Source: an uncultured Spirochaetota bacterium | GTDB lineage: Bacteria; Spirochaetota; Brevinematia; Brevinematales; JAOACQ01 | Length of the DNA stretch: 64,000 bases | Assembly: GCA_963835575.1 (NCBI GenBank) | Contig: CAWIGG010000002.1 | Coordinates: 1 to 64,000 of the forward strand | Direction: 5' to 3' | Notes under the pieces: generated by a model | The model's input: the letters and a program-made list of their open reading frames with translations, nothing else | Database searches by the model: none | What the model was told of the DNA's origin: nothing | In this document: one piece after another, positions 3,612-42,058 of the stretch | Position numbering within the stretch: position 1 is the first letter of the stretch | Layout of the letters: the number at the start of each line of letters is the position of its first letter | Position numbers and translations under genes: made by a program

Positions 3612-3621
3612 GCAAAATGGC

Positions 3622-23585: not shown

Positions 23586-26401
23586 ACCTTTGCCTCCACC
23601 ATGTTAATTTCTTCCTCTGTCAGTCCATATAACTCATAAACCAGTTTATCAATCTTTCTATCCAGAATTTCAATTTGCTGGTTTGATAATGCTATATCCT
23701 GTTCGGTTTTGGCGGCTTGAAGACCTTTTTTTGCGGTTATTATTTTATCAGTCAATTCGATCAATTTATCTTGACTTTGAATAGTATTTTCAAGAACAGG
23801 GAAAGGTAATGCTAAAACATCCTTGATAGTTACCTGGGGAAAATCATCTTTAGTGGCTTGTGTAACTTGTTTTAGATATAAAAATGATAAAAGTTTGCTG
23901 TTTAAAATAGCCAATAATACTTTAATATCCAATTTTGATTCACTTTTTAATATAACAGAGTATAAATTCTTATTAGTAATGAAAGACTCCATTACAATCA
24001 TGGACATTAGCCTTTGCTGGCGGTTAACAAGTCTACGCAATAATATTCTATTTGAAGTAAACCAGAAAATTTCTTTTGGTCTTTCTTTCATTTTATCATT
24101 AAATTCAACCCATTGATCTGCTTTTATATTAATTGCATATCTATAAACATCACCTTCAAAATATTTGTAAGAAATATCCGAAAGCTTTGTTTGGGTTAAT
24201 AATGTTTTGCTAAATAAAACACCTCTTTTTATTAATGTGATATCATTTAAAGTAAATTGGGTATTTCGTTTTATTGATTCAATAAGATTATTAGCACCAG
24301 ACTCGAAAATAAATTTTAAATCATTATTATTGCGCCAAACATTTTGATTAATCTTATTGTAATCTAATAATTCAATTTCTTTTATCTTTGATTTTTTTGG
24401 ATATTCAAATGTTCTTACATAATTAACTGATTGAAATATTTTGTTTCTAACTTTGAAAATTAGCGTATCAATATATGCATCAGAAAAGACATTAAAAGGA
24501 AGTAAAATTAAAACATCTATTTCATAATTTAATAGAAAATCTCTCAATTCTTTATATTTTGGGCCACCTGTCCATGCAGAGGGAACAATAAAAGAAATTA
24601 ATCCTTTTTGTTTTAACAAGCTAAAACTATTCTGGATAAAACTAATATAGACATCTTTTATTTTAGAAAATATTGAATATTTCTTAGATAAATATTTGTC
24701 CTCACTTTCTTTAAACCAAGCACCATACGGTGGGTTACCAATTAAACAATCAAAGCCACCACTTTTTATTATTTCCGAAAATTGCTTTTCCCAATCAAAA
24801 GCATTTATAGACCTTATTGTTTCTTTATCAAAAAGGTTATTTTCATTTTCAAAAAAGTCGCTTCCGATCAGAGAATTACCGCACTTAATATTATTAGAAA
24901 GGTTTGGAAGATATTTTAAATCGCTATGTTTAAAAAGTAAACCTGCGCTTTCAGTGCTTTCATTTTCCATCAGTTTCAGAAGTAATGACAATTTTGTTAC
25001 TTCAACAGCCTGCGGGTCTATATCCACACCGTAAATATTATTGAGAAGGATTTTTTGCTTTTCCTGAATGGTAAGATGGTAATGCTTTTCGTTCAATTGG
25101 TAAATACGCCCTTCTTTCAGGGCTTTTTTCAACTGCTTTTCTTCAATATAGAAACTCAAATGATAATTTAAAAGATAAGTATAAGCTCCAATTAGAAATG
25201 AACCGGAACCACAAGCGGGATCGAGAACTTTTATTTTTTCTATTTCAGATGGTAATAACCCTTTTATTTTTTCACCGACAGTATTTTCAACTATATAATT
25301 AACTATATATCGGGGTGTATAAAAAACACCACCAGCTTTCTGTACTTCCGGCTTTTTCTCTATTCTTACTTGATGGGTTGGAGTTAACCGGATAGTTTCA
25401 CCAAGAAATTGTTCATAAATATTGCCAAGAACTTCAATCGGCAAAACGGAAAATTCATAAGGACAATCGGGATAATACATTTCTGTAATAATTGTTTTTA
25501 AAATATTGTCATCAATATTTAGATTGATTAAGAAATCATCTATCTTAAAAAGGTCGCTGTTATATTTATCATTGCCTTTAATAAAAAGCTTGTTTAGTTC
25601 CTGATAAGCATTTTTTCTATGAACCGCTTCAAATAAAAGGGCGTATTCTTCTGTCCCTCTATCTTCAGCAATCCGCAGGAATATAATTCTGTCCATAATC
25701 TTCTGAACTGCATAATTAAGCTGGTAAACATCGTCAAGGTTTAAATTTCTGATTGATATATTATTAGCAAGAGTTTGACGCCACTCGGATATGAGTTTTA
25801 AAAATTCCTTATCTACTTCGGAAGAACCTTTTTTGCTCTTATTGTCTTCAATGTAACGGTCAAAGCTGCCTTTGAGTATGGCGTTTTTTGAAAATGTATT
25901 AGTGATAAATTCAAAATGTTTTTCATAATCTTCAAAAGTGCAATAGAATATTCTGGCTACACTTGCTTTATCTGTTTTGTCGGGTTTAATGCGTGTGTCA
26001 TAAACGGCGATTTCTTCAAAATCAGTCAAAATGGATAATGGTAACTTTGCTGTGTAAGCATAACGTCTGATTTGATAAGCCGGGTCAATGTCCTCTTTAA
26101 TGTTGACGGAAGGTTTTTTAGCTTCAACGAAAAATTTACGGGTTCCGCCAATCCTGAAAGAATAATCAGGGGCTTTTGGTTTTCCTTGAATAACAACTTT
26201 ATCTTCTCTTACTACTTCCCGGTAATCTTCTGAATATTCTTGGGTATTGCGTACATCCCAATCAAGAAGCTCGAAGAATTTATCAATAAAATCAACTCTA
26301 GTATTCGCTTCATCGTAAGAAAGGCTTTTATATTGTTTGATATTCGTTTTAAAATGTTCTACTAATTGCTTTAATTTCATAAGTTTTTCATTCATTTCCA
26401 T
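23582..26401 (-). CDS. Type IIG-like fused restriction-modification enzyme
   Basis: APDY...VEAKKP, VLDPACGSGSFL, IGNPPY, TaqI-C-like TRD. Confidence 0.9.
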   Translation of the reverse strand: MEMNEKLMKLKQLVEHFKTNIKQYKSLSYDEANTRVDFIDKFFELLDWDVRNTQEYSEDYREVVREDKVVIQGKPKAPDYSFRIGGTRKFFVEAKKPSVNIKEDIDPAYQIRRYAYTAKLPLSILTDFEEIAVYDTRIKPDKTDKASVARIFYCTFEDYEKHFEFITNTFSKNAILKGSFDRYIEDNKSKKGSSEVDKEFLKLISEWRQTLANNISIRNLNLDDVYQLNYAVQKIMDRIIFLRIAEDRGTEEYALLFEAVHRKNAYQELNKLFIKGNDKYNSDLFKIDDFLINLNIDDNILKTIITEMYYPDCPYEFSVLPIEVLGNIYEQFLGETIRLTPTHQVRIEKKPEVQKAGGVFYTPRYIVNYIVENTVGEKIKGLLPSEIEKIKVLDPACGSGSFLIGAYTYLLNYHLSFYIEEKQLKKALKEGRIYQLNEKHYHLTIQEKQKILLNNIYGVDIDPQAVEVTKLSLLLKLMENESTESAGLLFKHSDLKYLPNLSNNIKCGNSLIGSDFFENENNLFDKETIRSINAFDWEKQFSEIIKSGGFDCLIGNPPYGAWFKESEDKYLSKKYSIFSKIKDVYISFIQNSFSLLKQKGLISFIVPSAWTGGPKYKELRDFLLNYEIDVLILLPFNVFSDAYIDTLIFKVRNKIFQSVNYVRTFEYPKKSKIKEIELLDYNKINQNVWRNNNDLKFIFESGANNLIESIKRNTQFTLNDITLIKRGVLFSKTLLTQTKLSDISYKYFEGDVYRYAINIKADQWVEFNDKMKERPKEIFWFTSNRILLRRLVNRQQRLMSMIVMESFITNKNLYSVILKSESKLDIKVLLAILNSKLLSFLYLKQVTQATKDDFPQVTIKDVLALPFPVLENTIQSQDKLIELTDKIITAKKGLQAAKTEQDIALSNQQIEILDRKIDKLVYELYGLTEEEINMVEAKV

Positions 26402-26430
26402 CGTCGTATCCTTTGTTTATTTAAAAAGAG

Positions 26431-26459
26431 ATTATACACCTTACGCCGTTTTCCGGCAA
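26431..26459 (-). promoter_or_regulatory. Cassette-borne sigma70 promoter
   Basis: TTGCCG-17-TATAAT; leader nearly identical to 17656-17736. Confidence 0.7.
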
Positions 26460-26504
26460 GGATGCCGGAAAAATTTAAGAACCAGCTTCGGCCCGGAAAA
26501 TTTC

Positions 26505-26592
26505 GTACAACGTGGGGTGTAAACGACGTTTTGCGGTTGCGACCGAAGGGAGCAATTGGCGCAGTTTTTGCTTTCCTGGCAAAAACTGTGAC
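26505..26592 (-). repeat. Left part of split attC-like site (attL side)
   Basis: GTACAAC-GTG-GGGTGTAAACG arm pairs with CGTTTACACCG at about 41491-41501. Confidence 0.85.
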
Positions 26593-26769
26593 TTTTTACA
26601 TAGCATAAAACATAAGAAAATATAAGATAATAAAAGTAATATATCTTACATTGCATCAATGAATTAGTCAATATTATTATTTCCTATCTTTTCCTTTACT
26701 TTTCATAAATTTGTTACTATAATGTTACTACAAAATATGAGTAACAAAGTAACAAAAAGGGAGTATAAA

Positions 26770-27816
26770 ATGAGTGTAACATTAAGAGAAAAAAAACTCA
26801 ACGAAAACAGAATTTCTTTATACCTTGATATTTACTATAACGGTCAAAGGAAATATGAATTCCTGAATATCTATTTAGGTAAGGATAAAAATGTGAATAA
26901 AGAAAATATAAGAGTTGCAGAAAGCATAAGAGCTAACAGAGAAATTGAAATTAATAATAATCAGTATGGAATGGTTCCGGCCTTTAAAAGTAAAACCGAT
27001 TTTGTTACTTACTTCGAACAAAAAGCAGGTAATAAAGAATCCTGGCAACCACCGCTTTATCAATTGAAAAGTTTTACAAAAGGCATAATACTTTCAGCTA
27101 TCAACGAACAATGGCTTAAATCATTTCAGGATTATTTATTAACCAATGTATCAAATAACACGGCCCATAATTATTTTATCTATATAAACAATGTTTTAAA
27201 TCAGGCAGTAAAAGAAAAGCTCATTCCCGATAATCCTTGTAAATATATCGAGAAGATAAGGAAAACGGAAGTCGAAAAGAGTTATTTAACCTTTGAAGAA
27301 ATACAAAAACTGGCGAAAGCCGATTGTATAGACCAGGAAACAAAAAGAGCTTTTCTCTTTTCATGTTATACTGGATTAAGAATAAGCGATGTAAAAAAAT
27401 TAACTTACTCAGATATTCAAGGTGATAGATTGCAATTCAGGCAAAAGAAAACCGGCCAATTTGAATATATGCCTTTATCCGATATGGCGATGAGATTACT
27501 GGAAAATCCAGATTCAAAAATAATTCCATTAAAGAAAAGCTCTGTCTTTAATTTAAAACGTCATGAAACAATAAGGCAGCAATTAAAAAAATGGTGTAAA
27601 AATGCGGGTATTGATAAACCGGTTACTTTTCATACTTCAAGACACAGCTTTGCAACCGTTGCTTTAACTCAGGGAGTAGACATTTACACTGTATCAAAAC
27701 TTTTAGGACATAGAGACTTGGCGACCACTCAAATTTATGCAAAGATAGTAAATGAAAAAATGAGGGATGCGGTTAATAAACTTCCAAAGATAGAAATTGA
27801 AACAAAGCAGGCATAA
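26770..27816 (+). CDS. Tyrosine integrase with arm-binding and SAM-like domains
   Basis: SLYLDIY..G.RKYEFL N-terminus; YTGLRISD, FHTSRHSFA, LLGH, TQIYAK. Confidence 0.92.
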   Translation: MSVTLREKKLNENRISLYLDIYYNGQRKYEFLNIYLGKDKNVNKENIRVAESIRANREIEINNNQYGMVPAFKSKTDFVTYFEQKAGNKESWQPPLYQLKSFTKGIILSAINEQWLKSFQDYLLTNVSNNTAHNYFIYINNVLNQAVKEKLIPDNPCKYIEKIRKTEVEKSYLTFEEIQKLAKADCIDQETKRAFLFSCYTGLRISDVKKLTYSDIQGDRLQFRQKKTGQFEYMPLSDMAMRLLENPDSKIIPLKKSSVFNLKRHETIRQQLKKWCKNAGIDKPVTFHTSRHSFATVALTQGVDIYTVSKLLGHRDLATTQIYAKIVNEKMRDAVNKLPKIEIETKQA

Positions 27817-27974
27817 AAGGTTTTAAATAATGCCATTTTACCCTATTGTAGGGCTTTCAATTTGTAATTTATTATAAAAATATTATCTGAAAATAATAAA
27901 ACCCCTTATAATAAGCAAAACAAAAAAAGGAATATATAGTCAAAAGAATAGAAAGCATTTAAGGATTAATATTT

Positions 27975-29336
27975 ATGGCTATAATTGATGGGAGTGCTTT
28001 TTTTAGTAATAAAGCCTATTATAAGCGGAATGAGTTTGAACTTTCTAAAAATGGGATTCAATTATTTATTAATGAATTTTCCATAAAAGATAAAATTGAA
28101 TTTTTTGATTGGCTAATCCATATGTTTAAAAATAAAATTGAAGCTGAATTAAATCATAAAAAAGGGCGGCCTAACGATCCATTATATCTAAATTCTTATG
28201 ATAAACATACACAAAAAACAATAATTGAAAGCCTGTATCCAGAATACAAAGACTTAATAGAATGGATGGAAAATATATTTGAAGAAGTGAATAGAGAAAC
28301 CGTTTTATCAGATATGGATATTAAAAAAAATTTAAAACAATCAAATAGCAATGATATTGATATTATTAAAAAAGAATATGAATCGATTGAATCAATACCT
28401 GAAAGAATTGAATTTTTAATTAAAGCAAAAAGAGACTTTATAAATGCTAATGAAAAACATAGAATTGAACTTAAGATAAATGCTGAAAAAGAACATGAGG
28501 ATAATGTATTTGATAAATTTTATAATCAAATTTATTCTAAAGTGGAAGCAGAATTCAATTGGTTTGATAATGAATTGGAATATCTAAATAGGAGAAATGA
28601 ATTGCTAAAAGAAAATAAACAGATAATCCCGGATTTTAATTATCAAGAAACTAAAATTATTTGGAACTATAATGAAATTATGGCATATTCAGATAGTTTG
28701 CAGGATAATCAAGCAAAACATATCTTTTTATCTTATGTTCTTAAAGAACTAAAAGTTAATAAAAATAATATTATTGAAATTTATGTTACAGGACACCCGC
28801 GTTACTTAAACGCCCCTACTAATTATAAAATGGCTAATGAAATATACAATGATTTAAAAAGCAATTATAAAAATGTAATAGAAGATTTGATAAATCGTCT
28901 TGAATTGGAAAAAGAATTTTTAATTAATAATAATCTTAAACAGTTTAATGCTTTATCACCTGAAGAACAACAAAAACTTTATGATAATGCTTTGAAAGAA
29001 AAAATAAAAGGATTTTCTAAAGAAGAAAATACAGTCATTGCTAAACAATCAAAAAACAATAAAAAAATTCATTGGAAAGGAAATGAAGAATCGATAATAT
29101 ACCTCTTTATGAGTTTAAAAAATATGGGGCTTATTGAAGAAATAAGTTTTACTTATATTCAATCTATTATTCCCCAATTTTTCTATGATGGAAAAAACAA
29201 TAAGGAATATACTAATACTCAATTAAATAAGGTAAAGCAACGTTTACAAGATAAATTAGAAAAAAATCTTATCAAGTATCCAGACAATAAAAAAATCGCA
29301 GATTTAATAGAAGAACTAAAACTAATGACAGACTAA
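27975..29336 (+). CDS. Hypothetical protein with RteC-like C-terminal segment
   Basis: KIHWKGNEESIIYLFMSLKNMGLI resembles RteC-type wHTH; position between int and xis. Confidence 0.45.
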   Translation: MAIIDGSAFFSNKAYYKRNEFELSKNGIQLFINEFSIKDKIEFFDWLIHMFKNKIEAELNHKKGRPNDPLYLNSYDKHTQKTIIESLYPEYKDLIEWMENIFEEVNRETVLSDMDIKKNLKQSNSNDIDIIKKEYESIESIPERIEFLIKAKRDFINANEKHRIELKINAEKEHEDNVFDKFYNQIYSKVEAEFNWFDNELEYLNRRNELLKENKQIIPDFNYQETKIIWNYNEIMAYSDSLQDNQAKHIFLSYVLKELKVNKNNIIEIYVTGHPRYLNAPTNYKMANEIYNDLKSNYKNVIEDLINRLELEKEFLINNNLKQFNALSPEEQQKLYDNALKEKIKGFSKEENTVIAKQSKNNKKIHWKGNEESIIYLFMSLKNMGLIEEISFTYIQSIIPQFFYDGKNNKEYTNTQLNKVKQRLQDKLEKNLIKYPDNKKIADLIEELKLMTD

Positions 29337-29419
29337 GGACAATCTGGGAATAAACTATACTACTTTTTTTATCTATAATTTCCTTAGAATAGATTTTACT
29401 TTATTCTAAGGAGATAGAA

Positions 29420-29713
29420 ATGGACAAAGCAATTCAAGAACAACTGGACAGAATCGAAGCAATTCTCAAAGAACAGAAAGAAAAACCCCTGACCTTCGAA
29501 GATGCCTGTAAATATACAGGACTGAGTAAATCATATCTTTACAAATTAACCTTTCAAGGGTTAATTCCCCATTACAAGCCAAACGGCAAGATGCTTTATT
29601 TCACAAAACAAGACCTTGATACCTGGCTTTTAAGAAACCGTATAGAATCCAAAGAAAATATCGACCAGCAAGCAATTGATTATGTCACCAGGAAGGCGGT
29701 GTCTGGTTTATGA
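29420..29713 (+). CDS. Excisionase-like HTH protein
   Basis: LTFEDACKYTGLSKSYLYKLT...IPHYKP.GK.LYF...L..WL. Confidence 0.88.
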   Translation: MDKAIQEQLDRIEAILKEQKEKPLTFEDACKYTGLSKSYLYKLTFQGLIPHYKPNGKMLYFTKQDLDTWLLRNRIESKENIDQQAIDYVTRKAVSGL

Positions 29714-29796
29714 ATTTCATCTTATTAAATTCCAAAAGTATCATTATAGTAAATCTGTTACTTTATGATAAAACTTTTATCATTATAAATTAAAAA

Positions 29797-30840
29797 ATGG
29801 TCAGATTAGACAGTATAAAAATACAGGTTCGTGATGACTGTATTGATAGAATTGATAATAATTTTATAAAAGATGAGATTGACCGGCATAATATTAACGG
29901 TGAAATATTTGATCAGATAAAGGTTAAACGTATTATCCCTGAAAGTAAGATTTTAGGCTTAAAGGATATTAAATTCTTAAATACCGGCTTAATTAATATC
30001 GAGCTTTCAGCAAAAATTTTTAAAGAGAACTATCCCGGTTTGATCAACCAAAATAATATTGAATATATGGTGGATTGTCTGAATAAAAACAAAGCCGTTC
30101 AATTTAACAAGCGAAGATTAATTGAAACCGCCTCAGTGCTGTATTGTGACTGTACCCAAAATCTGGAAGTAAGCAGAAACAAACAGGAATATTTTAAGGC
30201 TTTATTCGAATTAAAAACAAACACGAAATATAACGTTATCCCTTACATAAAGAAAGGTATTTTTGAAACCATCATTTTTGAAAAAAATATAAGAAATAAA
30301 AGATCGAATTCATTTGAAAGATTGATAGTTTATGACAAGTATCAAGAGCTTGTAAATTCTATCAATAAAAATAAACAGGATGAAAATAAAGAGCTGGTAA
30401 ATAAATATTTAAAAATGAACGGTCTTGATTGGTTCGCAAATAAATTAAGATTTGAAAGGCGATTTAATCATTTTGAAAATATCAGAAAATCATTTTTAAT
30501 TAATGATAATTATTTAAATAGTGTATTAACCAGCCCGGAGAATGTTATTTTAAAATTATTTGAAGAAATCAATCGGGGTTCTAAAACTGGACTTTTCGAT
30601 ATATGGAAAAATGAAGATAAATTTTATTCTATTATAAAAACTGAAGGGTTTGATAACATTATTGAAAAATGTAATTATGATATAGAAATTATTAAACATT
30701 TTATTAAGCAAAAAGTTAAAGGAAACAGTTCTGCATATGTAAGAAAATTTAAGGATAGGATAAACTTTTTGATGAATAAAAGCGGCAATATTAGCAACAA
30801 CTATATTGATGAAATCATTGAATTAATTAAAGCGGCTTAA
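29797..30840 (+). CDS. Putative replication initiator (phage/plasmid gpII/X / Rep_trans-like)
   Basis: LDSIKI, D.TQN, LIVYDKYQE, LRFERR motifs; follows xis. Confidence 0.55.
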   Translation: MVRLDSIKIQVRDDCIDRIDNNFIKDEIDRHNINGEIFDQIKVKRIIPESKILGLKDIKFLNTGLINIELSAKIFKENYPGLINQNNIEYMVDCLNKNKAVQFNKRRLIETASVLYCDCTQNLEVSRNKQEYFKALFELKTNTKYNVIPYIKKGIFETIIFEKNIRNKRSNSFERLIVYDKYQELVNSINKNKQDENKELVNKYLKMNGLDWFANKLRFERRFNHFENIRKSFLINDNYLNSVLTSPENVILKLFEEINRGSKTGLFDIWKNEDKFYSIIKTEGFDNIIEKCNYDIEIIKHFIKQKVKGNSSAYVRKFKDRINFLMNKSGNISNNYIDEIIELIKAA

Positions 30841-30854
30841 CATAAATTCTTTTA

Positions 30855-31211
30855 TTGGACGGTTTTAGTTTTGTGAATAGTGAATTTGAAATTTTAAAAT
30901 ATGACAGAAACTTCAAAGAAATCCCTATGTCACCTTCTTCAATGGATGCCTTTTTTACAAGCGATAAAGCACTCTGGAAAGGGACTGATTCTTTCTTGGG
31001 GACAAGGCTCAAATTAAAAGAAAAAAAGATTGTAGAAGTAAAAACGTTTATGGCAGAATTCCTAACCCAAAGACAGCAAGAAGTCATCAGTCTGTATTAC
31101 TTCAATGGCAAGACTCAAACAGATATAGGTGTAATATTGGGCATACATCAAACAACTGTATCCCAGCATCTTAGATATGGTATTAAAAAATTGAGAATAG
31201 CCTTTAAATGA
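30855..31211 (+). CDS. Sigma70 region-4-type HTH protein
   Basis: LTQRQQEVISLYYFNGKTQTDIGVILGIHQTTVSQHL; start uncertain. Confidence 0.7.
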   Translation: MDGFSFVNSEFEILKYDRNFKEIPMSPSSMDAFFTSDKALWKGTDSFLGTRLKLKEKKIVEVKTFMAEFLTQRQQEVISLYYFNGKTQTDIGVILGIHQTTVSQHLRYGIKKLRIAFK

Positions 31212-31512
31212 AAAGGAAATCATTTTTATAATTGATTCTGATCTTTCATATATTTTCTTGTAAATAAAATATTATAGTAGATTATGGCATTTCCATATAT
31301 GTTATTATTTTTGATTTGACTTTATTGTAATTATGGAGATATAATATTTTTGTAATATGTAAATAATTGAATATTTTATAACTCTATAAATATAAAAGTC
31401 TAATATGTCAAAAAAATAGTTAGGCATAAGTAGGATAGTCAATCTTCTGCCGGAAAAATCGTTAGAATTATTTAGATGTATAATGATTAATTAAAAATAG
31501 AAGGAAACGGGG

Positions 31513-34467
31513 ATGACAAGAAAGGAAGGGCTTTTAATAGTTGAACAAAAAGTTGAGGATTTTCAAAAAGGTGAGGCTGGTTTTTTATTAAAGTCATTTC
31601 AAGAAACGGAAACCAGAGATCGCTTTATCGACCCATTTTTTGAAGCCCTTGGGTGGGAAATGAAGCAGACTGGTGTATCGCGTCAATACTGGGATGTTCA
31701 TCGTGAATTTTCACTGAAAGATGATTCCTCTACAAAAAAACCGGATTATGCTTTCAGAGTAAAAGATATAGGTGTGCCTCACGATAAATTTAAAGAAAAA
31801 TTCTTTGTGGAAGCAAAAGCCCCGTGGGTTTCTCTTACCGACGCAAAACCTGTCTTTCAGGCTAAAAGGTATGCCTTTTCATCTCATGGTAAAGCCCCTA
31901 TAGCCATTCTCACAGACTTTCAGGAATTCCGGGTTTTTAATGGTCTTGAAAGACCACGTTTTGAAAATCCTCTGCAAGGATTAATTAAAGAACTGGATTT
32001 AAAATATACCGATTATTTAGCCAAGTGGGAAATACTTTGGGCTAACTTTTCAAAAGAAGCCGTTTATGACGGAAGTATTGAAAACCTCGCTGGAAAAGTT
32101 TCCAGAAACACAAAAACATTAGACGATGAATTTTTAAATGATATTATTGAATGGCGAGAAACGCTCGCCCGGAATGTCGCTATCCGAAATAAAAACTTAT
32201 CCGTCGATGAAATAAATGAAGCTGTTCAAAGAATTCTTGACCGTCTTGTCTTTATCAGAAATCTTGAGGACAGAAACATTGAAGATGAGAATCTTCTTAT
32301 GAATCTTGTTGACCGCCAGGATTATGAGGACGCGCATTTTTATAAATGCATAATTCCCTTATTTCGCAAATTCGATATTGATTATAACGGCCTTCTTTTT
32401 AAAAAGCATTTCAGCGAAGAATTGGAGATTGATAATAAAATCATCAAGGATATTATTAAAAGTATGAGTTCAGAAGTTTCTCCTTTCCGGTTTGATATAA
32501 TTGAACCTGAAATATTAGGGCATATTTATGAGCGCTTTCTCGGTTCAAAAATCCGGTTGACTGAAGATCACCGGGCTAAAGTTGAAATGAAACCGGAAGT
32601 GAATCATGCCGGCGGTGTTTTTTATACTCCTGAATATATCGTCAAATACATTGTTGAAAATACTGTAGGTGAAAAAGTAAAAGATAAAACACCGGAAGAA
32701 ATCGAACAACTCAAAATATTAGACCCGGCTTGCGGTTCGGGTAGTTTCTTACTCGGAGCTTTTGATTATCTGATAAAATACCATCAGGATTATTACTCTA
32801 AACTTTCCAAGACCGCCCGGAAAAAATACAAAGATTACTTTTTTGAAACCCCTGACGGTGAAATCCGGCTGACTTTGCAGAAGAAAGGCCGAATCCTCAA
32901 AAATAATATTTTCGGCGTGGATATCGACCGTGAAGCTACTGAAGTATCTATTATGAGCCTATATTTAAAACTTCTAGACGAAGGCTTTGACAAAGGGCAA
33001 GCATTACTATTTATGCGAGGGCATATTTTGCCGGATATGACAGCCAATATTAAATGTGGAAATAGTTTGATTGACCGTGAGCAATTATTTTCTAATGACC
33101 TTTTCGGTGATGAAGATATTAAACCTTTTGATTGGGATACTGAATTTTGGATAGGTGGCTTTGACTGTATTATCGGCAATCCTCCGTATATCAGAATTCA
33201 GGAAATGCAAAAATGGGCGCCTAAAACAGTTTCTATTTACAAAAATATATATAAATCCGGCAGTTCAAATAATTTTGATATTTTCGTGTTATTCCTTGAA
33301 AAAGCCTTGATGCTTTTGAATCAAAAAGGGCTTTACGGTTTTATCGTACCAAACAAATTTATGCAGCAGGAATATGGTCAAAATATTCGAGAAATATTAA
33401 GCAGTGGAAAGCATATATTTCAGATCATTAATTTTAAAGATTTTCAGGTCTTTAAAAACGCTACTACTTATACTTCTCTAGTTTTTGCCTCAAAAAACCC
33501 AAACATTTCATTTAACTATGCTGAGGTCAAGAACGAATTGGTTAACTTTCATCTTACACAAAAAGACTTTTCTTCTATTACAGCAGATCCCTGGCTTCTA
33601 CATGATGAAAAAGATGAATTGTTAATTAAATCTCTGTCAAAATACCCTATCCTTGCCGATCTGTCCACCAATATCTTTGTCGGTGTTCAGACCAGTGCTG
33701 ATAAAATATTTATTCTTGATTTCATTGAAGAAAAGGAAAACTCCTATGTTCTTTATTCAAAATCTGTTGAACGTCAGATTGAATTGGAAAAGACTTATGT
33801 AAAACATGTTATCAGCGGTCTGGATGTAAAACGTTATTTAATTCCGCCAAAAAGACAATATATTATTTTTCCTTATAAGATTGAGAACGAAAAAGCAATT
33901 CTACTTTCTAAAGCCGATCTGGAAAACAACAGCCCGAAACTGTGGGAATATTTATTTGAAAACAAAAAAGTCCTTGAAGATAGGGAGAATGGACGTTTAA
34001 AAGGCAAAGGCTGGTATGGTTACATATACCTAAAAAATATGTCTTTACAAGATAAACCTAAATTATGTGTGCCTCGTTTAGTACAGAAAATTCAATGCAC
34101 TTTTGATGCTAATGGTTCTTATTGTCTTGATAATGTGGATGTCGGCGGAGTTATACTTAAAGAAGAATACAATCATTTATATTATTATATTATGGGGCTT
34201 TTGAATTCTTCCCTGCTCAGTTTTTATCTAACCAAAATAAGCACACCATTTCGGGGTGGCTTTTGGTCGTGTAATAAGCAATATCTTGAAAAACTGCCAA
34301 TTTATCTTCATTACCCGCAAGATAAAGATAAGTATGCTCTCTGTCAGAAGATTGAAGAAATGGTTAAACAGATTATAGAACTCAAGAAAGATGAAAAACG
34401 TTTGAAGGATGCTGAATTTCTTGAAAGAAAGATTGATGAGATGGTTGAGAAAATTTATTTGGAGTGA
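31513..34467 (+). CDS. Type IIG-like fused restriction-modification enzyme, paralog of 14643-17624
   Basis: Near-identical REase/MTase part and C-terminal helix, different TRD. Confidence 0.9.
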   Translation: MTRKEGLLIVEQKVEDFQKGEAGFLLKSFQETETRDRFIDPFFEALGWEMKQTGVSRQYWDVHREFSLKDDSSTKKPDYAFRVKDIGVPHDKFKEKFFVEAKAPWVSLTDAKPVFQAKRYAFSSHGKAPIAILTDFQEFRVFNGLERPRFENPLQGLIKELDLKYTDYLAKWEILWANFSKEAVYDGSIENLAGKVSRNTKTLDDEFLNDIIEWRETLARNVAIRNKNLSVDEINEAVQRILDRLVFIRNLEDRNIEDENLLMNLVDRQDYEDAHFYKCIIPLFRKFDIDYNGLLFKKHFSEELEIDNKIIKDIIKSMSSEVSPFRFDIIEPEILGHIYERFLGSKIRLTEDHRAKVEMKPEVNHAGGVFYTPEYIVKYIVENTVGEKVKDKTPEEIEQLKILDPACGSGSFLLGAFDYLIKYHQDYYSKLSKTARKKYKDYFFETPDGEIRLTLQKKGRILKNNIFGVDIDREATEVSIMSLYLKLLDEGFDKGQALLFMRGHILPDMTANIKCGNSLIDREQLFSNDLFGDEDIKPFDWDTEFWIGGFDCIIGNPPYIRIQEMQKWAPKTVSIYKNIYKSGSSNNFDIFVLFLEKALMLLNQKGLYGFIVPNKFMQQEYGQNIREILSSGKHIFQIINFKDFQVFKNATTYTSLVFASKNPNISFNYAEVKNELVNFHLTQKDFSSITADPWLLHDEKDELLIKSLSKYPILADLSTNIFVGVQTSADKIFILDFIEEKENSYVLYSKSVERQIELEKTYVKHVISGLDVKRYLIPPKRQYIIFPYKIENEKAILLSKADLENNSPKLWEYLFENKKVLEDRENGRLKGKGWYGYIYLKNMSLQDKPKLCVPRLVQKIQCTFDANGSYCLDNVDVGGVILKEEYNHLYYYIMGLLNSSLLSFYLTKISTPFRGGFWSCNKQYLEKLPIYLHYPQDKDKYALCQKIEEMVKQIIELKKDEKRLKDAEFLERKIDEMVEKIYLE

Positions 34468-34500
34468 TTGGATTAGAAAAAAGTTAATTGAGGTTATTAT

Positions 34501-35736
34501 ATGAATGGAAAAAAAAACGATCAAAACGATTTTATCTGTTATATAGGTAATAAGAAAGAAATATCCTTAGAGAAAATACGCTTAAGAATAAAAAATTATC
34601 TGGAACTGGATAATGTTAGTATTCTTGCCGGTGCAGGTACAAGTTTTCATATTGGCGCGCCTATAATAAGAGTAATTCCAAAAGAAATAAATGACTCATT
34701 ATTAAGCGATAAAGAAATAAAAGATTTTTACAAAATTAAAATAGATGAAATCAGTAAAGATAAAAATAACAACAAGGGTATATCTCTCGAAGATTTTCTC
34801 AATTATTTACAGGCAGATAGATTTTGTGCAATAACAAGATCAGAAGACATAACTAATTATGACATTTTAATTAAAAAAATTCAAAGTGAATTATTTTTAC
34901 GATGTAATACTCAGAATACAAACTTACATAATGATTACAAAGAAGATTCTAATTTAAAGGAAAATAGATATTTTTATCATGAGAAATTAATCAAAAAAAT
35001 ACTCCTAAGACCAATTAATCTGAGACGTGTCAATCTTTTTACTTCTAATTATGATTTGGCTTTTGAATATAGTTTTGATAATACAGGAATATATTATATA
35101 AATGGTTTTTCTGGTTTTCAGAGACGATTTTTTCATCCTGAATCCTATGATTATGACGTTTATTATCCTGGTCAAACTACAAGCGGAAAAGTGCATCGTG
35201 CTGAAAAAGTTTTACGTTATTATAAATTACATGGTTCTTTATCTTGGATTTTTACTGAACAAAATGCAAGAAATTTATATGGAATTGAAGAAATTTATAT
35301 TGATAAAAAACCAGAAAACGAATTAGTAATATATCCATGTGTAACAAAAAAAAGATTTACTCTCGATTTGCCTTATTCCGAATTATTCAGACATTTCTCA
35401 AATTCTATTAAACTAAACCAGTCAGTATTGTTTTGTATTGGTTATTCTTTTAATGACGAACATATAAATGATATAATCTATCAGGCTCTTTCAATTCCTT
35501 CTTTTACTCTTTTTGTAATTGATTATAAAGCTACGGATAATAAAGAAATTAATAAATTAAAATCTCTCAATGATCCACGTATTTTAATAATTGAAGGTAA
35601 ATATGCGAAATTCACTAAATTTGTTACTGATGTTTTACCTGATATATATGATGAAAAAGATGAAATCAAGATTACTGAAACAATGAATAAATTATATAAT
35701 ACTGATAATAATGATGAGGAAATTTCAGATGTCTGA
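34501..35736 (+). CDS. SIR2-like NADase of Sir2-HerA defence system
   Basis: LAGAGTS, FTSNYD, KLHGSLSW, IGYSFNDEHIN. Confidence 0.9.
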   Translation: MNGKKNDQNDFICYIGNKKEISLEKIRLRIKNYLELDNVSILAGAGTSFHIGAPIIRVIPKEINDSLLSDKEIKDFYKIKIDEISKDKNNNKGISLEDFLNYLQADRFCAITRSEDITNYDILIKKIQSELFLRCNTQNTNLHNDYKEDSNLKENRYFYHEKLIKKILLRPINLRRVNLFTSNYDLAFEYSFDNTGIYYINGFSGFQRRFFHPESYDYDVYYPGQTTSGKVHRAEKVLRYYKLHGSLSWIFTEQNARNLYGIEEIYIDKKPENELVIYPCVTKKRFTLDLPYSELFRHFSNSIKLNQSVLFCIGYSFNDEHINDIIYQALSIPSFTLFVIDYKATDNKEINKLKSLNDPRILIIEGKYAKFTKFVTDVLPDIYDEKDEIKITETMNKLYNTDNNDEEISDV

Positions 35737-37852
35737 TCGTCAAATAGGCCGTGTTGTATCTGTAGATAATTTTCGTGTTTTTGTAAAGCTTGATGATGAT
35801 CTAACAAGTACACATAAAAGCGGTTTTAATGACATTTACGAAGTTGCACGCATCAATTCTTATCTTATCATACCTGTGGGTTCAGATAGAATAGTAGCTT
35901 TAATTACAAGGGTCAAAATGCAGGAAGAACCCGAATTCGATAAAAATAAACAATCTATTTCACTGCCTTCTTCTTCCAGATATATTACCGCAACTATGCT
36001 AGGCACAATTGAAACAAGAAATAATAAAGAAATATTTATTCAAGGCGTATATAATTTTCCGGTTCTCGATAATGTAGTCTGGTTCATTACCGCGGATGAT
36101 TTAAATAAAATATTCGATTATAATGAATCTTCCGAGATAGATTATTCTAAAGACTTTTATCTTCCTATCGGTAATTCTCCAGCTTTTCCGGATTATGATG
36201 TGAAAATCTGCCCTGACCAACTTTTCGTAAAACATACGGCAATTTTAGGAAATACCGGGTCTGGTAAATCGTGTACGCTTACTTCCATATTGAAATCCAT
36301 TTTTAACTATAAATTTAAGACAAAAGTTGCTGGTCAAACGGAACAAAGTGAAGAATGTTATTTGAAGAATGCCCATTTTATTATATTTGATACTAATGGA
36401 GAATATAAAAATGCTTTTATTTCTGAAGGTGAACAATTCGAAAGAATAAATACCCTGGTTATTGATGATAAAGGTCTAAAAGTACCTTACTGGTTTATGA
36501 ATTGGGATGATTTTGATTATTTGTTTGAGCCGGGTTCTGGCACACAAGCTCCAATTTTGAAAAGAGCAATAGGATTGGCTAAAAATATTACAGAAGCTAA
36601 AACAAATAATTTGCTTAATAAAGTTTTGGAAGGATGCCTCGTAGAAATTATAAATTCTGCTTGCGGTTGTGAAGAATGGAAATTCAAAGCTAAAAGAGAA
36701 AAAGATAAAAATTTTGATTGTAATAATCAAATACTTCAATTATCAAAAGAACTGGAAAAGTATTCTGAACTGAATTTAAGAAATATTTCAGAGAAATTAA
36801 AAATTTTAGGTAAAAAAGATTTAACATTAACTGAAAAAACACAATCAATTAATGAAATTGAATTAAGTTATAAAAAATATAAAGAAAGTTTGATTGATCA
36901 ACAAATAATGACAGAAAAGAATATTGATCTTCCAGTATGGTTTAAGTATCAAGAATTAATTACAAAGTACATTGATTCCGCTATTGAAGAACATGAGGGT
37001 TCTTCTTCAAAAATTAGTGAATATGTCTCAACACTTAGATTGCGTTTGGAAGGCTTTTTTAATGACCGGCGTATTGCCGATCCTTTATTATTAAATATTG
37101 AAGCAGAATTTACAGAATCTTTAATAAAATTCATTTCATTTATCTTTGGCGATTTCTACCGATCCTTAAATAATAATGAAACCGATGTTTATTCAGAATA
37201 TTATAATCAATTAAAATATGATCAATTTGAAAATATACCAAATAAAGGAAAAGCAAACCAGATCACAATTCTTGATATGTCACTTATCCCTTTTGATGTA
37301 CTTGAAAATTTGACTGGACTTATAGGTAGACTGATAATTGAATTTGTGGAGCATTTTAAACCTGAGGAAAGAGGTCGGTATCCAATAGTAATTGTATTAG
37401 AGGAAGCTCAAAATTATATACCGGAAAAGAACAGGAAGGACCGGGAATCCATAGCAAAGAAAGTTTTTGAAAGAATAGCCCGTGAAGGACGTAAATATGG
37501 TATTTCATTAATAGTATCCAGCCAAAGACCTTCGGAATTATCAAAAACTGTGTTGTCTCAATGCAATTCATTTATCATTCATCGGCTACAAAACCCTGAC
37601 GACCAAAAATATATAAAAGGACTTGTTTCCAGCGCCAATAGTGATATTTTAGATCAGCTACCGATACTCCCGCAACAGCATGCAATAATCATGGGTGATT
37701 GCGTCCGTACCCCTGTACAAATGAGAATAAATGATATATCACCCAAACCAAATAGTGACAACCCAAGATTTATTGAAAAATGGCTTGAAAGTAATAATGA
37801 TTTTCCTGATTACAAAGAAATTTGTGACAGATGGGAAGAAGGTAAAAAATAA
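35729..37852 (+). CDS. HerA/DUF87 ATPase of Sir2-HerA defence system
   Basis: N-terminal HAS-like barrel, GNTGSGKS, LEEAQNY, REGRKYG, SQRPSE; overlaps SIR2 stop. Confidence 0.9.
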   Translation: MSDRQIGRVVSVDNFRVFVKLDDDLTSTHKSGFNDIYEVARINSYLIIPVGSDRIVALITRVKMQEEPEFDKNKQSISLPSSSRYITATMLGTIETRNNKEIFIQGVYNFPVLDNVVWFITADDLNKIFDYNESSEIDYSKDFYLPIGNSPAFPDYDVKICPDQLFVKHTAILGNTGSGKSCTLTSILKSIFNYKFKTKVAGQTEQSEECYLKNAHFIIFDTNGEYKNAFISEGEQFERINTLVIDDKGLKVPYWFMNWDDFDYLFEPGSGTQAPILKRAIGLAKNITEAKTNNLLNKVLEGCLVEIINSACGCEEWKFKAKREKDKNFDCNNQILQLSKELEKYSELNLRNISEKLKILGKKDLTLTEKTQSINEIELSYKKYKESLIDQQIMTEKNIDLPVWFKYQELITKYIDSAIEEHEGSSSKISEYVSTLRLRLEGFFNDRRIADPLLLNIEAEFTESLIKFISFIFGDFYRSLNNNETDVYSEYYNQLKYDQFENIPNKGKANQITILDMSLIPFDVLENLTGLIGRLIIEFVEHFKPEERGRYPIVIVLEEAQNYIPEKNRKDRESIAKKVFERIAREGRKYGISLIVSSQRPSELSKTVLSQCNSFIIHRLQNPDDQKYIKGLVSSANSDILDQLPILPQQHAIIMGDCVRTPVQMRINDISPKPNSDNPRFIEKWLESNNDFPDYKEICDRWEEGKK

Positions 37853-37987
37853 ATATAAATTTAAAACATAAAAAGCCACTTTTTTAAAATATTTTAAGGA
37901 AGTATTAAAAATGGCAGCGCTAACTCTAATCTCCGCAGTTATTCCGGCGGAGACAAAGATGGGATTCTTTTTCCAAGCCATATATTA

Positions 37988-38762
37988 AGCTTTCCTCGGG
38001 CACTCCCGAAAACTCCGGCGCGGTCGCCGTCCTTCCACTGCCTGCGTTTTCGGGAGTGCCCTCGTCAAGCTTCCTGTTTTCAACCCTTTGAGCACTGCCT
38101 CACTCTTAACATAATTTTTCTTATGGTCAAGCAAGCGAATTAATCGCACTTTTTTATACTGATATTCCTCTATTTTTTTATAAAGTTATTTTATAATTTA
38201 TTCTTTTTTCTACCGATGGCTCAATGGAGTAAACGCCTGCCCATAAGAAGAAATTATGTTAAGTAGCAAAGGATTTAATAATTTTTATATCCTGCATCTT
38301 TCTTATTCTCTAAAATCTTTTCTTTATTGTTGCTTTCTCAACCTTTGCTAACGTTCGGCGCGCTCAAAGGGTTGAAAACAGGGCTGGCGCATTTCGTTAT
38401 TATTTTCCACCCTGCCCGCCCGTATAGAATGAAGCAAAAAGCATAGCTTTTTTTATGAGCTGTCCCGTCCGTCCCGTAGATATTCTTTTTCTCTTTCAGG
38501 TTCCAATTTCGGGACTCCCCTTTGTCCTTTTTCACTTGTCAGTACCGTTTTAAAACCGTGCTCTTTAAATATTTTCACCCTGCCTTTTTTATTATACCGT
38601 GAGAAAAATAAAATAGTCCACTTCGCCAAGGGTAAAGTCGCAAGCTCCCGATTTAAAAATATTTTATTGTCTTAAAAACAGAAATGCTTTTTTTAAAAAC
38701 CAAGGGTCTTTATTACAGGTTAAAATATTTTTAAATCGCCCTTGCTATTTTATTTTTCTCGC
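37988..38762. other. Non-coding region with several long nested inverted repeats
   Basis: GGGCACTCCCGAAAAC/GTTTTCGGGAGTGCCC; GTTTTCAACCCTTTGAGC/GCTCAAAGGGTTGAAAAC; GAGAAAAATAAAATAG/CTATTTTATTTTTCTC. Confidence 0.75.
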
Positions 38763-38822
38763 TGGTGTTGTATTTAGTCAGGGTTAGAAATTTTATTATA
38801 ACTCAAATTTTAGGAGGTATTT

Positions 38823-39203
38823 ATGTCAGCTTATATTGTCAGCAAAGATCACATTTCTGCGTTAGTCAGTTTTTGTAATGCGAAAAATGTTTATGTGTAT
38901 TATGATGGGAAAAAGTTTGATGTCACGAATCTTGACGCTATTGGTCAGATTCTCGTGAATGAAAACTACCGTTCAGTTAATACCCGGTATAGTTCAAACG
39001 ATGCCCCATTTGTTTACGAGTTTCAATATCTGCAACGGCATTTTACGCTTATTCAGATTATTAAACTATGTCATTGCTATAATTATCAGTCATGTGAAAC
39101 GGAAGATTATTATGAATCTCTTGCCTATGCGATTGTGAGAGGTATCGAATCTCATGCTGTCCGGTTATTACCTGGCTATGAAGAAGCGGAATGGGGTTTA
39201 TAG
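38823..39203 (+). CDS. Hypothetical protein of phage/plasmid type
   Basis: Strong RBS AGGAGGT; EN.RSVN.RY, YQSCE, LPGYE.A.W motifs. Confidence 0.7.
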   Translation: MSAYIVSKDHISALVSFCNAKNVYVYYDGKKFDVTNLDAIGQILVNENYRSVNTRYSSNDAPFVYEFQYLQRHFTLIQIIKLCHCYNYQSCETEDYYESLAYAIVRGIESHAVRLLPGYEEAEWGL

Positions 39204-39256
39204 TTTTGAAGCGTTATTGAAACGGAATTGAAGCGGAGAAGGTCTCCTTAAGAAAT

Positions 39257-39298
39257 AAAAAAGCCCCTGCATTTTATAGATTTATGCAGGGGTTTTAG
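39257..39298. terminator. Bidirectional terminator between convergent genes
   Basis: AAAAAAGCCCCTGCAT...ATGCAGGGGTTTT. Confidence 0.7.
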
Positions 39299-39321
39299 TT
39301 TGCGATATCCGGCCGGGATTA

Positions 39322-39651
39322 TCAGCTCGGCATAAACGGAGTTGTAGGAGCTGTCCCATTGTTTGCGTTTTTGTAGTTTATATATCCGCTCACATACAGG
39401 TTAAAACCGCTCATCTGCTGACCACTTGCAGCACTATTCCAGGCGTCTTTTGTCGCCTGTGTTTCCGCCTGCCAGGCCGCTACCGCCGCCGTAAAATAGT
39501 CCCTGACTTTAAGCTGATTTTCAGTCTGGGGATTTGAAGGTACAGTATACTGCCTGCTATAGTTGATCCCCTTCCATTTTGCGAAAACCATCGTATCGGC
39601 AAATGTGCCGCTTGCGTCAAGGGACATCAAAGGCCCTGTTACTTTTGCCAT
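39322..39651 (-). CDS. Hypothetical protein (SG...WKG..Y.R...NP.T..Q..R..F family)
   Basis: RBS AAGGAGGT; coherent GC-richer ORF. Confidence 0.7.
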   Translation of the reverse strand: MAKVTGPLMSLDASGTFADTMVFAKWKGINYSRQYTVPSNPQTENQLKVRDYFTAAVAAWQAETQATKDAWNSAASGQQMSGFNLYVSGYINYKNANNGTAPTTPFMPS

Positions 39652-40159
39652 AGTATTTCCACCTCCTTAAAGGATATAATTTTAAACAAATATTTTTTAC
39701 CCTTTATTAATAGTCATTTTTAAGGGTATCGAAATGAAATAAATGGTTGAATTTAATCGGCAGGGAAGAATGACTGAATAAAACAAACAGGTTACATACG
39801 GAAAGTTAATAAATATTATCGGAAAGCAAGATATTATGGAGATCAATGCTGGGGAATAATAGGTTAAAAAACCTATTACGAACTATTTAAAACCCTTAAA
39901 AACTATTTGTAAAGCTCATTGGAAGTTTTTAAAACCATAAAAATATTTATGGTATTATTTATGATTATATTTATATTCTCTGTTTTCCTTGACAGTACCT
40001 TAAATTTGTCTTAATATTTAGGCATACTGTTAACAATACTATTCAAATACTTGACGGAGAGAATTTTCCGTGAAATCGATTTTGAAATAGAAATATCTGT
40101 TCTATTTATCATATTCTTAATTAGAATTCCGAATATTAAATATGAAGGGGGCGTAGCTT

Positions 40160-40708
40160 ATGATTAGTTATAAATTTAATGAAACAAAAGCAATTCAGTT
40201 AATCGCTTTTCTTCTTAAGCAAGATAATACAAAAGATTATAATAATTATACAAAAATTATCAAACTTTTATACTTGGCAGATAGAGAAGCATTAAATAGG
40301 TGGGGAAGATCAATAACAAAAGATATTTATGCAAATCTTCCAGCGGGGCCGATTGTAAGTGAAACTTATGATTTAATTAAGGAAATGAAAAAAGGGGCTA
40401 ATGAATTTATTTGTTCTAAAAATGAATATGATTTGGCATTAGTAAGTGATCCTGGTGATGATGAATTAAGTAATGCAGAAATTAAGCTACTTAGAGAAAT
40501 ATCTGAAAAATATAAGGATAAAACATATCAAAAAATGGTTGATGAGGTTCATCGTCTTCCTGAATGGGTTGATCCAAGACCTAGAGGGAAAAAATCATTA
40601 TCAGTTGAAAATATTTTAGAAGTGTTAAATAAAACAGATGATGAAATTAAAGAAATTGAAGTATCAAACAAAGAAGAAAACTATATAATTAATGTCTTAG
40701 GTTTATAA
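40160..40708 (+). CDS. Panacea (DUF4065/SocA-like) antitoxin
   Basis: KIIKLLYLADRE.L..WGRSIT.D.Y..LP.GP, H.LPEW.DP. Confidence 0.8.
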   Translation: MISYKFNETKAIQLIAFLLKQDNTKDYNNYTKIIKLLYLADREALNRWGRSITKDIYANLPAGPIVSETYDLIKEMKKGANEFICSKNEYDLALVSDPGDDELSNAEIKLLREISEKYKDKTYQKMVDEVHRLPEWVDPRPRGKKSLSVENILEVLNKTDDEIKEIEVSNKEENYIINVLGL

Positions 40709-40709
40709 G

Positions 40710-41087
40710 ATGAAAAAAGGGGGGACATTCTACGGCAACCCAGAAGGAGCCTCTCAACCCCATCTACACTGTATAATTACAGACTCATCCGAGCATAAAG
40801 AAAAAGGTAAATGTCTTTTTGTTCATATGATTTCATATAATGAAGGTAATCCGTATTCAGACCGTTCTTGTATTTTAAATAAAGGTGATCACCCATTTAT
40901 TACACGTCCAACTTGCATAAATTATGCTGCTGCAACGGAAATAGATTTAGAGAATCTTGAATTTGCTGTTAGTCGATGTTTGTGTGAAGAAAATGCCCCT
41001 CTATCCTTAGAAATCTTAGAGAGAATACGTGAAGGGGCAAGACTTTCTGATCATTTACCTAGAAAATATAAATACTTATTCGAATAA
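40710..41087 (+). CDS. Probable toxin paired with Panacea antitoxin (PemK/MazF-like fold suspected)
   Basis: Starts 1 bp after the antitoxin stop; HL..II, D.SC.L.KGDHPFI motif. Confidence 0.55.
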   Translation: MKKGGTFYGNPEGASQPHLHCIITDSSEHKEKGKCLFVHMISYNEGNPYSDRSCILNKGDHPFITRPTCINYAAATEIDLENLEFAVSRCLCEENAPLSLEILERIREGARLSDHLPRKYKYLFE

Positions 41088-41431
41088 AATAAAGAAATTT
41101 AATCATTCAAAGAAAGAATTATGAATTTTCATCATAATAAAATAAGCAATAATTATTATTTCTAAATATTGTGTTAATTTTTCGACACTATAAAAAGGAT
41201 TAAACAGAGTTTTTAGAGTCCGTAAAAAAGGCATTGAATATATTAAAATTAATAGTAAAACAATAAAATAACTATAAGGTTCCATTGTAAAACAAAAAAA
41301 TAACAAAAAAGTAAACGATATTAGAAATCTTATAATAATTACTTTTCCCTAAAAATGTTATTGTTTTGTTACCAAATAGGTTTTATAATTCACTTATCTT
41401 ATTGCTATTATATATATTAACAACTCTATAA

Positions 41432-41509
41432 GCAAAAACTGTGACAAAGCAAAATGTGGGCGCATCCCCGCAGGGCCGATAGGCCCGTAGCGTTTACACC
41501 GGGTTGTAC
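41432..41509 (-). repeat. Right part of split attC-like site (attR side)
   Basis: GCAAAAACTGTGACAAAGCAAAATGTGG...GTTGTAC continues the 26505-26592 half. Confidence 0.85.
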
Positions 41510-41530
41510 GAAGTTTGCCGGGCCGAATTT

Positions 41531-42058
41531 CTATTTAAATATTTCATTAGCATCAATTTCAGCTGGCAGATTATCTTTTGTTAAATATCCTGGTAATCCC
41601 CACCATTGATTATAGTTATCATCATAATAATTAATAATTATTCTAATCTGTTCGTTATACAATTTTAATGAATCTAATAAATTCTGATAAATATATTTCT
41701 TTTCTTCAATTGATTTAACTTGAGCAAATCCAGCATCTTCTGGTGCAGGTTGAGGCATAACTATGGATTTTTGGGAAATATTCTCTTTAATATTATTATA
41801 ATAATTTTTTTCTATTGTTGATCTTTCATTTACAAATTTGTCTAATTCTTTAATATAAAGTGTATAAAATACAAATGAATGCTTCAGATTTTCCTCCCTT
41901 TTAACCAATTCCCTATAGAATTTAATACACATTTCATAGTTATATCTATAATTATTGAATGAAAATATAGTTGGTTTCTTTAAAGATTTAAAACATTTAT
42001 TATTTAGGTTGAGAATATCATAAAATTTTGGAATTAAATTACTATTTTCTTTTTCCAT
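41531..42058 (-). CDS. Hypothetical cassette protein
   Basis: Single ORF filling the cassette; ATG at 42058 after GGGGA. Confidence 0.7.
   Translation of the reverse strand: MEKENSNLIPKFYDILNLNNKCFKSLKKPTIFSFNNYRYNYEMCIKFYRELVKREENLKHSFVFYTLYIKELDKFVNERSTIEKNYYNNIKENISQKSIVMPQPAPEDAGFAQVKSIEEKKYIYQNLLDSLKLYNEQIRIIINYYDDNYNQWWGLPGYLTKDNLPAEIDANEIFK

Follow-up and report, generated by a model that had tools for sequence, protein, structure and literature searches.

A defence island with its own tyrosine integrase splits an attC-like site in an uncultured Spirochaetota bacterium

The window analysed here is a 64,000-nucleotide stretch from an uncultured Spirochaetota bacterium of the order Brevinematales (GenBank assembly GCA_963835575.1, contig CAWIGG010000002.1, positions 1 to 64,000), and represents the first 64 kb of a 2-Mb contig. 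It carries an integron-like array of gene cassettes in which one attC-like site is interrupted by a 14,839-bp integrative island equipped with anti-phage genes. The island is well delimited and belongs to a family of small elements typical of Bacteroidota; it adds one to the integrative defence islands already known, in an unusual location. The reading preferred here, with moderate confidence, is that the island's tyrosine integrase recombined once into an attC-like site that matched it in sequence, and that no lineage specialised in such sites lies behind the insertion. Coordinates given without a contig name refer to the window; contigs of the same genome are named C1, C2 and so on. The split site and the island ends comprise the following features.

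26501-26592, + strand: left half of the split site, with an R''-type box (GTACAAC), the 5' arms of the outer and inner stems and the entire apical hairpin (profile, alignment, fold).
26579-26592, + strand: left copy of the core, GCAAAAACTGTGAC (attL), with the probable crossover in the 7-bp CTGTGAC at 26586-26592.
26593-41431, + strand: integrative defence island of 14,839 bp, bounded by the core copies; DNA similarity to the element of a congener begins exactly at 26593.
26711-26784: five TGTTAC repeats resembling arm-type sites, just upstream of and overlapping the integrase start.
41355-41372, + strand: right-end repeats resembling arm-type sites, TGTTAT and TGTTAC, ~60 bp inside the right junction.
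41432-41445, + strand: right copy of the core (attR), found by exact match search.
41446-41514, + strand: right half of the split site, with AAAGCAAAATGT as the 3' arm of the inner stem, a GC-rich hairpin and an R'-type box (GTTGTAC, 41503-41509).

A preliminary description of this DNA had proposed a split attC whose halves rejoin into a 152-bp site with pairing arms, and this is borne out by profile, alignment and fold. A profile built from the attC-like repeats of the window is matched at its positions 1-94 by 26501-26592 and at its positions 81-179 by 41432-41514, that is, by two halves of one site. Once rejoined by script, the halves (26505-26592 and 41446-41509) give a 152-nt site in column-by-column register with its intact counterparts at 3620, 7452, 10721, 17726 and 42115. 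It is framed by attC-type end boxes, GTACAAC (26505-26511) and GTTGTAC (41503-41509); the consensus ends of attC sites are RYYYAAC and GTTRRRY, the inverse-core and core boxes, respectively. Folded as DNA, the rejoined site reaches -44.2 kcal/mol, against a mean of -24.3 for dinucleotide shuffles, none of 300 being as low (z = -6.8), while the unjoined junctions fold to just -21.3 and -16.1 kcal/mol. The four intact sites tested exhibit z-scores of -6.6, -6.2, -4.8 and -1.5; with the rejoined site included, four of five lie between -4.8 and -6.8. In a consensus fold of 19 sites of this subtype from 9 genomes, 18 of the 31 pairs show a compensatory change, the struck apical hairpin included. 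The insertion point is located in the 3' arm of this hairpin.

The motif said to be duplicated at both junctions is indeed present there, GCAAAAACTGTGAC occurring exactly at 26579-26592 and 41432-41445, with no other perfect match in the 4,386,260-bp genome. Allowing up to two mismatches yields 30 matches genome-wide, of which just two, both island junctions, are perfect. Close variants of the core, also announced in the preliminary description, were found with 1-3 mismatches in the sites of the window at 3689, 7522, 17796 and 42186. A site-specific integrative element is recognised by a direct core repeat at both junctions and by a target that is restored on removal, and both are observed here. 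To note, the loop of the hairpin hit by the island carries a 65-85-bp AT-rich insert, with no bounding repeat, in three other sites of the same genome (C6:411885-412099, C6:422131-422362 and C2:2033458-2033688) and in one site of another genome (G024 L096:5322-5557). Such an insert could be a promoter, a scar or merely a variable loop. The inserts of 65-75 bp at three other sites were considered as scars of the island itself, an idea rejected because they have no bounding core repeat and could not be related to the island ends.

That the interrupting DNA is an island encoding an integrase holds as well: the island lies inside the attC-like site, and its integrase has arm-binding, core-binding and catalytic domains. 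From left to right, the island encodes:

26770-27816, + strand: tyrosine integrase, 348 amino acids, from the ATG at 26770 (longest open reading frame, ORF, from 26722), with Arm-DNA-bind_5, Phage_int_SAM_5 and Phage_integrase domains.
27975-29336, + strand: backbone protein of unknown function, 453 amino acids, whose N-terminal ~100 residues are common to both related elements.
29420-29713, + strand: HTH_17 protein, 97 amino acids, candidate excisionase or regulator (phrog_66 excisionase, E = 3.6e-7).
29797-30840, + strand: Rep-like protein, 347 amino acids, with a weak match to rolling-circle initiators (Phage_CRI, 27.5 bits for a cut-off of 21.7; phrog_702).
30855-31211, + strand: sigma-70 region 4 / LuxR-type DNA-binding protein, 118 amino acids (domain scan).
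31513-34467, + strand: type IIG restriction-modification enzyme, 984 amino acids (PDLC03604, 701 bits).
34501-35736 and 35711-37852, + strand: SIR2 and HerA, respectively, of an anti-phage pair (PDLC04084, 309 bits; PDLC04102, 573 bits).
39322-39651, - strand: DUF6266 fragment (domain scan).
40160-40708 and 40710-41087, + strand: SocA/Panacea-domain antitoxin-like protein and its 125-residue partner (domain scan, PHROG).

The integrase at the left end is intact, as expected of a tyrosine-integrase integrative element: the catalytic residues R204, K227, H288, R291, H314 and Y323 do not vary among 21 aligned homologues, the protein itself included. The HTH_17 protein has counterparts in both related elements, at 77% and 47% identity. 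For the 453-residue protein, a likeness to DUF6043 arises from language-model features alone and is a lead, not a result. The Rep-like protein, searched against plasmids, gave no match, and no relaxase or oriT was recognised in the island. The site profile has no match within 26593-41431, meaning that the island is devoid of an attC-like site of its own, and Rfam and tRNA scans of the window returned only two tRNAs, at 60 kb, and nothing in the island. A stretch of ~0.95 kb of the island (37870-38820) has no ORF longer than 65 amino acids and no Rfam match; a 67-bp piece of it is 85% identical to C6:5513-5578.

The first 1.8 kb of the island type IIG gene are 84% identical at the DNA level to a cassette-borne paralogue located at 14643-17624. 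The similarity begins exactly at the ATG (31513-33320 compared to 15829-17624), and the 3' specificity parts differ. A third copy, 81-83% identical to the island gene, lies beside a solitary attC-like site (C2:249432-251052). This pattern suggests that restriction-gene modules may have been exchanged between island and cassettes.

Motifs near both ends had been put forward as possible arm-type sites, a view strengthened by their distribution. TGTTAC occurs 12 times in the island, 6 of them in the terminal 250 bp, compared to a mean of 0.26 in shuffled ends, none of 2000 shuffles reaching 6; analogous paired repeats are found at both ends of the two related elements. With the conserved left ends of the three attPs placed in register, each of the flanking repeats overlaps a common 7-bp segment, which is flanked by imperfect inverted arms: in the window, GCAAAAA, CTGTGAC and TTTTTAC are contiguous at attL. 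Over the overlap and the left arm, attP and attB of the window are identical at 14 of 14 positions, exceeding what strand exchange needs (an overlap of ~7 bp). The two arms of the hairpin with its 7-nt loop were also considered as the integrase core, and were discarded since these arms face the wrong way relative to attP.

In the mechanism proposed, the tyrosine integrase, acting on double-stranded DNA, would have recombined attP with the identical 14-bp stretch of one chromosomal attC-like site. Strand exchange most likely took place in the 7-bp CTGTGAC, between the GCAAAAA and TTTTTAC arms of attP, while the integrase N-terminal domain would bind the TGTTAC repeats close to either end as its arm-type sites. 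Excision probably involves the HTH_17 protein and, should the island still be mobile today, the Rep-like protein may replicate the excised circle. The site would have been used because its sequence matches and not because it is an attC, the choice being a property of the core of this particular element.

The sites used by relatives of the island point in the same direction. Elsewhere in this genome, a 7.06-kb element (C2:395703-402763) headed by an integrase of 58% identity has the backbone of the island: the integrase, a related unknown protein and an HTH_17 protein. This element lies at the 3' end of an AAA-ATPase gene, between copies of a 13-bp repeat, and has paired CGTTACT repeats at both ends. 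In a congener (G020), the element headed by an integrase of 73% identity interrupts a small ORF in AT-rich DNA and is flanked by a 6-bp repeat, GCAATT. Excising 10,950 bp at this repeat restores an uninterrupted frame of 117 codons; no attC-like site is found within 40 kb of this element, which the orthologous intergenic region of the window's genome lacks. The preliminary description had named homologues at unrelated sites as the observation that would speak against specialisation, and this is what the 58% and 73% relatives display. The common backbone of the three elements is composed of the integrase, the conserved unknown protein and the small HTH_17 protein, the rest being variable cargo. 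A second homologue of 72-73% identity lies on a 2.1-kb contig that ends short of the junction. As a single-protein query, the integrase found no relative in metagenome contigs or viral contigs, and phage records provided only matches of 33-40% identity, on unannotated records. To note, the host gene of the congener element (contig C1 of that genome, about 1371700-1383550) is bracketed by CACAGA/TCTGTG-type inverted words and lies between two conserved genes; the counterpart of this place in the window's genome spans no more than ~72 bp.

The preliminary description had gone further, in assuming that the element targets a motif present in many copies in the array. The regular attB of the lineage would then be the conserved hairpin arm, and arrays would provide it with many safe landing sites. 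The 14/14 match is above the need of strand exchange, GCAAAA..GTGAC recurs in ~15 sites of the genome, and the hairpin is conserved because it is under structural constraint. Furthermore, in a genus from another family of the phylum, the adjoining inner-stem motif reaches up to 51 copies per genome, for a reversed-pattern control of 0-1. The occupancy of the sites tells against this proposal, however. The genome harbours ~45 attC-like sites (49 profile matches, eight of which pair up as the halves of four sites), ~15 of them with this hairpin and with 3' arms at 1-3 or more differences from the core; only the perfect one is occupied, and the near-cognate ones (1-2 mismatches) are empty. No case was found of different attC sites being hit independently at one and the same position. 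An integrase homologue at E <= 1e-30 is absent from all 24 genomes of the other genus, which carry the site family, most of them in many copies. The arrays of 13 such genomes (244,603 bp) contain 273 site matches, of which 262 are full-length and 11 partial, three of the latter lying at the edge of a locus or contig; the median spacing is 672 bp, and no gap is longer than 5,052 bp. Among 80 metagenomic relatives of the integrase (34-51% identity, one with a tRNA gene 2 kb away), none has an attC-like site of this family within 2.5 kb. GCAAAAACTGTGAC has no perfect match in 34 other genomes of the order, and its one-mismatch matches there are near the reversed-pattern control, with the exception of two unrelated repeat families. 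The motif TGACAAAGCRAAATGTG has 15 matches in viral contigs, about the number estimated by chance, and none fits the site profile. Considering also the non-attC sites of the 58% and 73% relatives, a specialised attC parasite appears unlikely. The same doubt applies to its most far-reaching form, in which the integrase would have adopted a structure-constrained hairpin arm of a spirochaete attC family as its cognate attB, making the island the first known tyrosine-integrase parasite of cassette sites, one that could ride as a composite cassette moved by the array recombinase lacking the IntI signature domain.

At the opposite extreme, the insertion may be a fortuitous, secondary one, the preferred attB being located in another host or gene and the hairpin merely similar to it. 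The relatives sit at unrelated sites, the repeat of one of them is only 6 bp long, which suggests a tolerance of imperfect sites, and attB is mismatched in its arm right of the core. Yet a 14/14 match is unlike a sloppy secondary site, and there is no further perfect core copy in this genome nor in the 34 others of the order; this explanation is quite unlikely. Capture of the island by the IntI-like recombinase of the array at a secondary site, or an artefact of assembly or rearrangement, is highly improbable: the recombinase gene is located 5 kb away, but the junctions display a 14-bp repeat inside a hairpin and not the G|TT exchange of an R' box, the island is free of attC-like sites and has its own integrase, arm repeats and homologous elements of the same layout, and the sequence is continuous within a 2-Mb contig. 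The preferred reading, a single recombination into a sequence-matched site, is itself weakened by several points. The identity of all 14 bp, beyond the ~7-bp overlap, is as expected of a cognate site, and the motif family is multicopy in the genome itself and in another family of the phylum. The attB arm right of the core (AAAGCAA) is unlike the attP arm, and the crossover model is drawn from three elements only. The relatives whose flanks were read are the 58% and 73% ones, and do not include the nearest homologue, of 82% identity and encoded on a 12-kb contig. Finally, with no sequencing run listed for positions 22000-31000, neither an excised circle nor an empty site nor a second island copy was seen, and an orthologue of the right-hand cassette with an empty site is absent from the 34 genomes of the order. 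The perfect 14-bp match nevertheless speaks for the hairpin as a good and perhaps cognate site for this particular element.

The array surrounding the island has features of its own. Ten sites are distributed in the window, from 1267 to the recombinase gene at 46684-47745; genome-wide, several contigs carry such arrays at an end, and arrays also adjoin the four paralogous tyrosine recombinase genes. The features of the array that matter most for the island are the following.

17726-17893, + strand: intact attC-like site, the next to the left of the island, bounding the composite unit (profile).
42115-42276, + strand: intact attC-like site, the next to the right, bounding the composite unit (profile).
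46684-47745, - strand: IntI-like tyrosine recombinase of the array, without the IntI-specific insert (TIGR02249, structure alignments).

The sites are 152-190 nt long, longer than classical attC sites, with a branched fold and conserved AAC/GTT end boxes. In all eight sites compared, the + strand fold is more stable than the - strand fold, and the cassette genes are on the - strand; the recombinase gene of the window has the same orientation as these genes. End boxes, an imperfect palindrome with a conserved structure, and sites separating cassettes beside a recombinase gene are thus all present, as in attC sites. The recombinase scores 213.7 bits against TIGR02249 (cut-off 265), in two stretches that skip model positions ~173-234; it aligns to residues 7-170 and 240-318 only of VchIntIA (2a3v), and to XerA from end to end. 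The same gap is found in all four paralogues, none of which has the additional domain of IntI. As the recombinase is without the IntI-specific insert, the sites are named attC-like and the array integron-like. The other three paralogues (C6:427159-427956, C7:4737-5534 and C1:10257-11024) each lie beside arrays of long branched sites. Dense arrays of the same site family are also observed in 13 genomes of genus g37, family f15, of the same phylum (e.g., G368:C2:218001-238000), and homologues of the domain-less recombinase (40% identity) were found in both genomes of this genus that were checked. According to a 2013 paper (PMC3607928), Treponema is the only spirochaete clade found with integrons.

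The cassettes of the window are often multi-gene and rich in defence functions, including two type IIG restriction enzymes, a KAP NTPase, and ApeA-like and PDC-S11-like genes. To note, a conserved leader of ~75 bp separates the attC-like site from the start of both cassette restriction genes (17625-17700 and 26402-26480). On the - strand, it displays a small hairpin followed by TGTATAAT, and looks like a cassette-borne promoter.

The preliminary description had also stated that the island, while inserted, locks two cassettes together. The structural part of this statement stands: the right-hand cassette (ORF 41531-42124) is left with no whole site to itself, and those at 17726-17893 and 42115-42276 are the closest that remain intact. 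It would consequently be movable only as a ~24-kb unit, from 17726 to 42115, together with the island and the five-gene cassette to its left, a joint movement deduced from the layout of the sites.

By its organisation, the island can be likened to small integrative, mobilisable elements of Bacteroidota such as NBU1, NBU2 and CTnDOT, with their IntDOT/IntN1-type integrases, the comparison being one of general features. As in these, an integrase with arm-binding, SAM-like and catalytic domains is located at one end and reads inwards, arm-type repeats are found at both ends, a small helix-turn-helix excision or regulatory protein is encoded, and the identity between attP and attB is short, about 13-14 bp. 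The ...TTGC/GCAA... word beside the crossover and the tolerance of heterology, as in the 6-bp repeat of the congener, recall CTnDOT. Conversely, the island has landed in the arm of an attC-like hairpin instead of a tRNA 3' end or a GTANNTTTGC site; neither a relaxase nor an oriT was recognised in it, its host belongs to the spirochaete phylum and its cargo is directed against phages. IMEX elements such as the CTX phage integrate at dif by means of the host XerCD; they too are mobile elements residing in the recombination site of another recombinase system, whereas the island encodes its own integrase and leaves the crossover point of the site unused.

Mobile elements that interrupt attC-type sites are already known, namely IS1111-attC elements and group IIC-attC introns (PMC3001079, PMC11187229). 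The former use a DEDD transposase and the latter a reverse transcriptase/ribozyme, and both recur in many attCs. The island differs from them in having a tyrosine integrase and a 14-bp core, in its single occurrence and in its relatives being located elsewhere. Literature searches on integrase elements or genomic islands inside attC returned no report of a tyrosine-integrase island there. In sedentary chromosomal integrons, whose defence cassettes are the subject of a preprint (bioRxiv 10.1101/2024.07.02.601686), anti-phage systems likewise gather in the array; in the present array, the island adds restriction-modification, SIR2-HerA and toxin-antitoxin functions to those of the cassettes. The island itself is no cassette, as it has its own integrase and no attC, and the recombinase of its array is without the IntI insert.

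The island illustrates that a folded cassette site can be struck by an unrelated integrase, the neighbouring cassettes being thereby fused into one unit. If close relatives were to land repeatedly in such sites, they would form a third, integrase-based class of attC parasites, and would link defence islands with cassette arrays. The surroundings may outweigh the island itself: large arrays of attC-like sites, served by IntI relatives without the signature domain, occur in two families of the spirochaete phylum. These surroundings also feature an insertion sequence (IS) of the IS1182 family, located precisely at the crossover triplet of attC-like sites.

The multicopy attC-associated element of this genome is this IS1182-family IS, not the island. 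The copy of the window is 1,722 bp long (42273-43994), its transposase scoring 277.4 bits (cut-off 270), with 16-bp terminal inverted repeats and a probable 3-bp duplication, GTT. Further copies are found at C6:168906-170627, C6:412096-413817, C2:1628826-1630547, C2:2042221-2043942 and C2:1831104-1832825, and others at contig edges (C2:1-604, C5:1-160 and C3:1-387), several contigs breaking at the IS. Of the nine copies examined, among which the tenth, partial one (C5:422718-423679) is not counted, seven border attC-like sites, with the IS placed precisely at the R'-box GTT. The IS begins with GAGT, and these four bases restore a GTTGAGT box where its left end joins the site.

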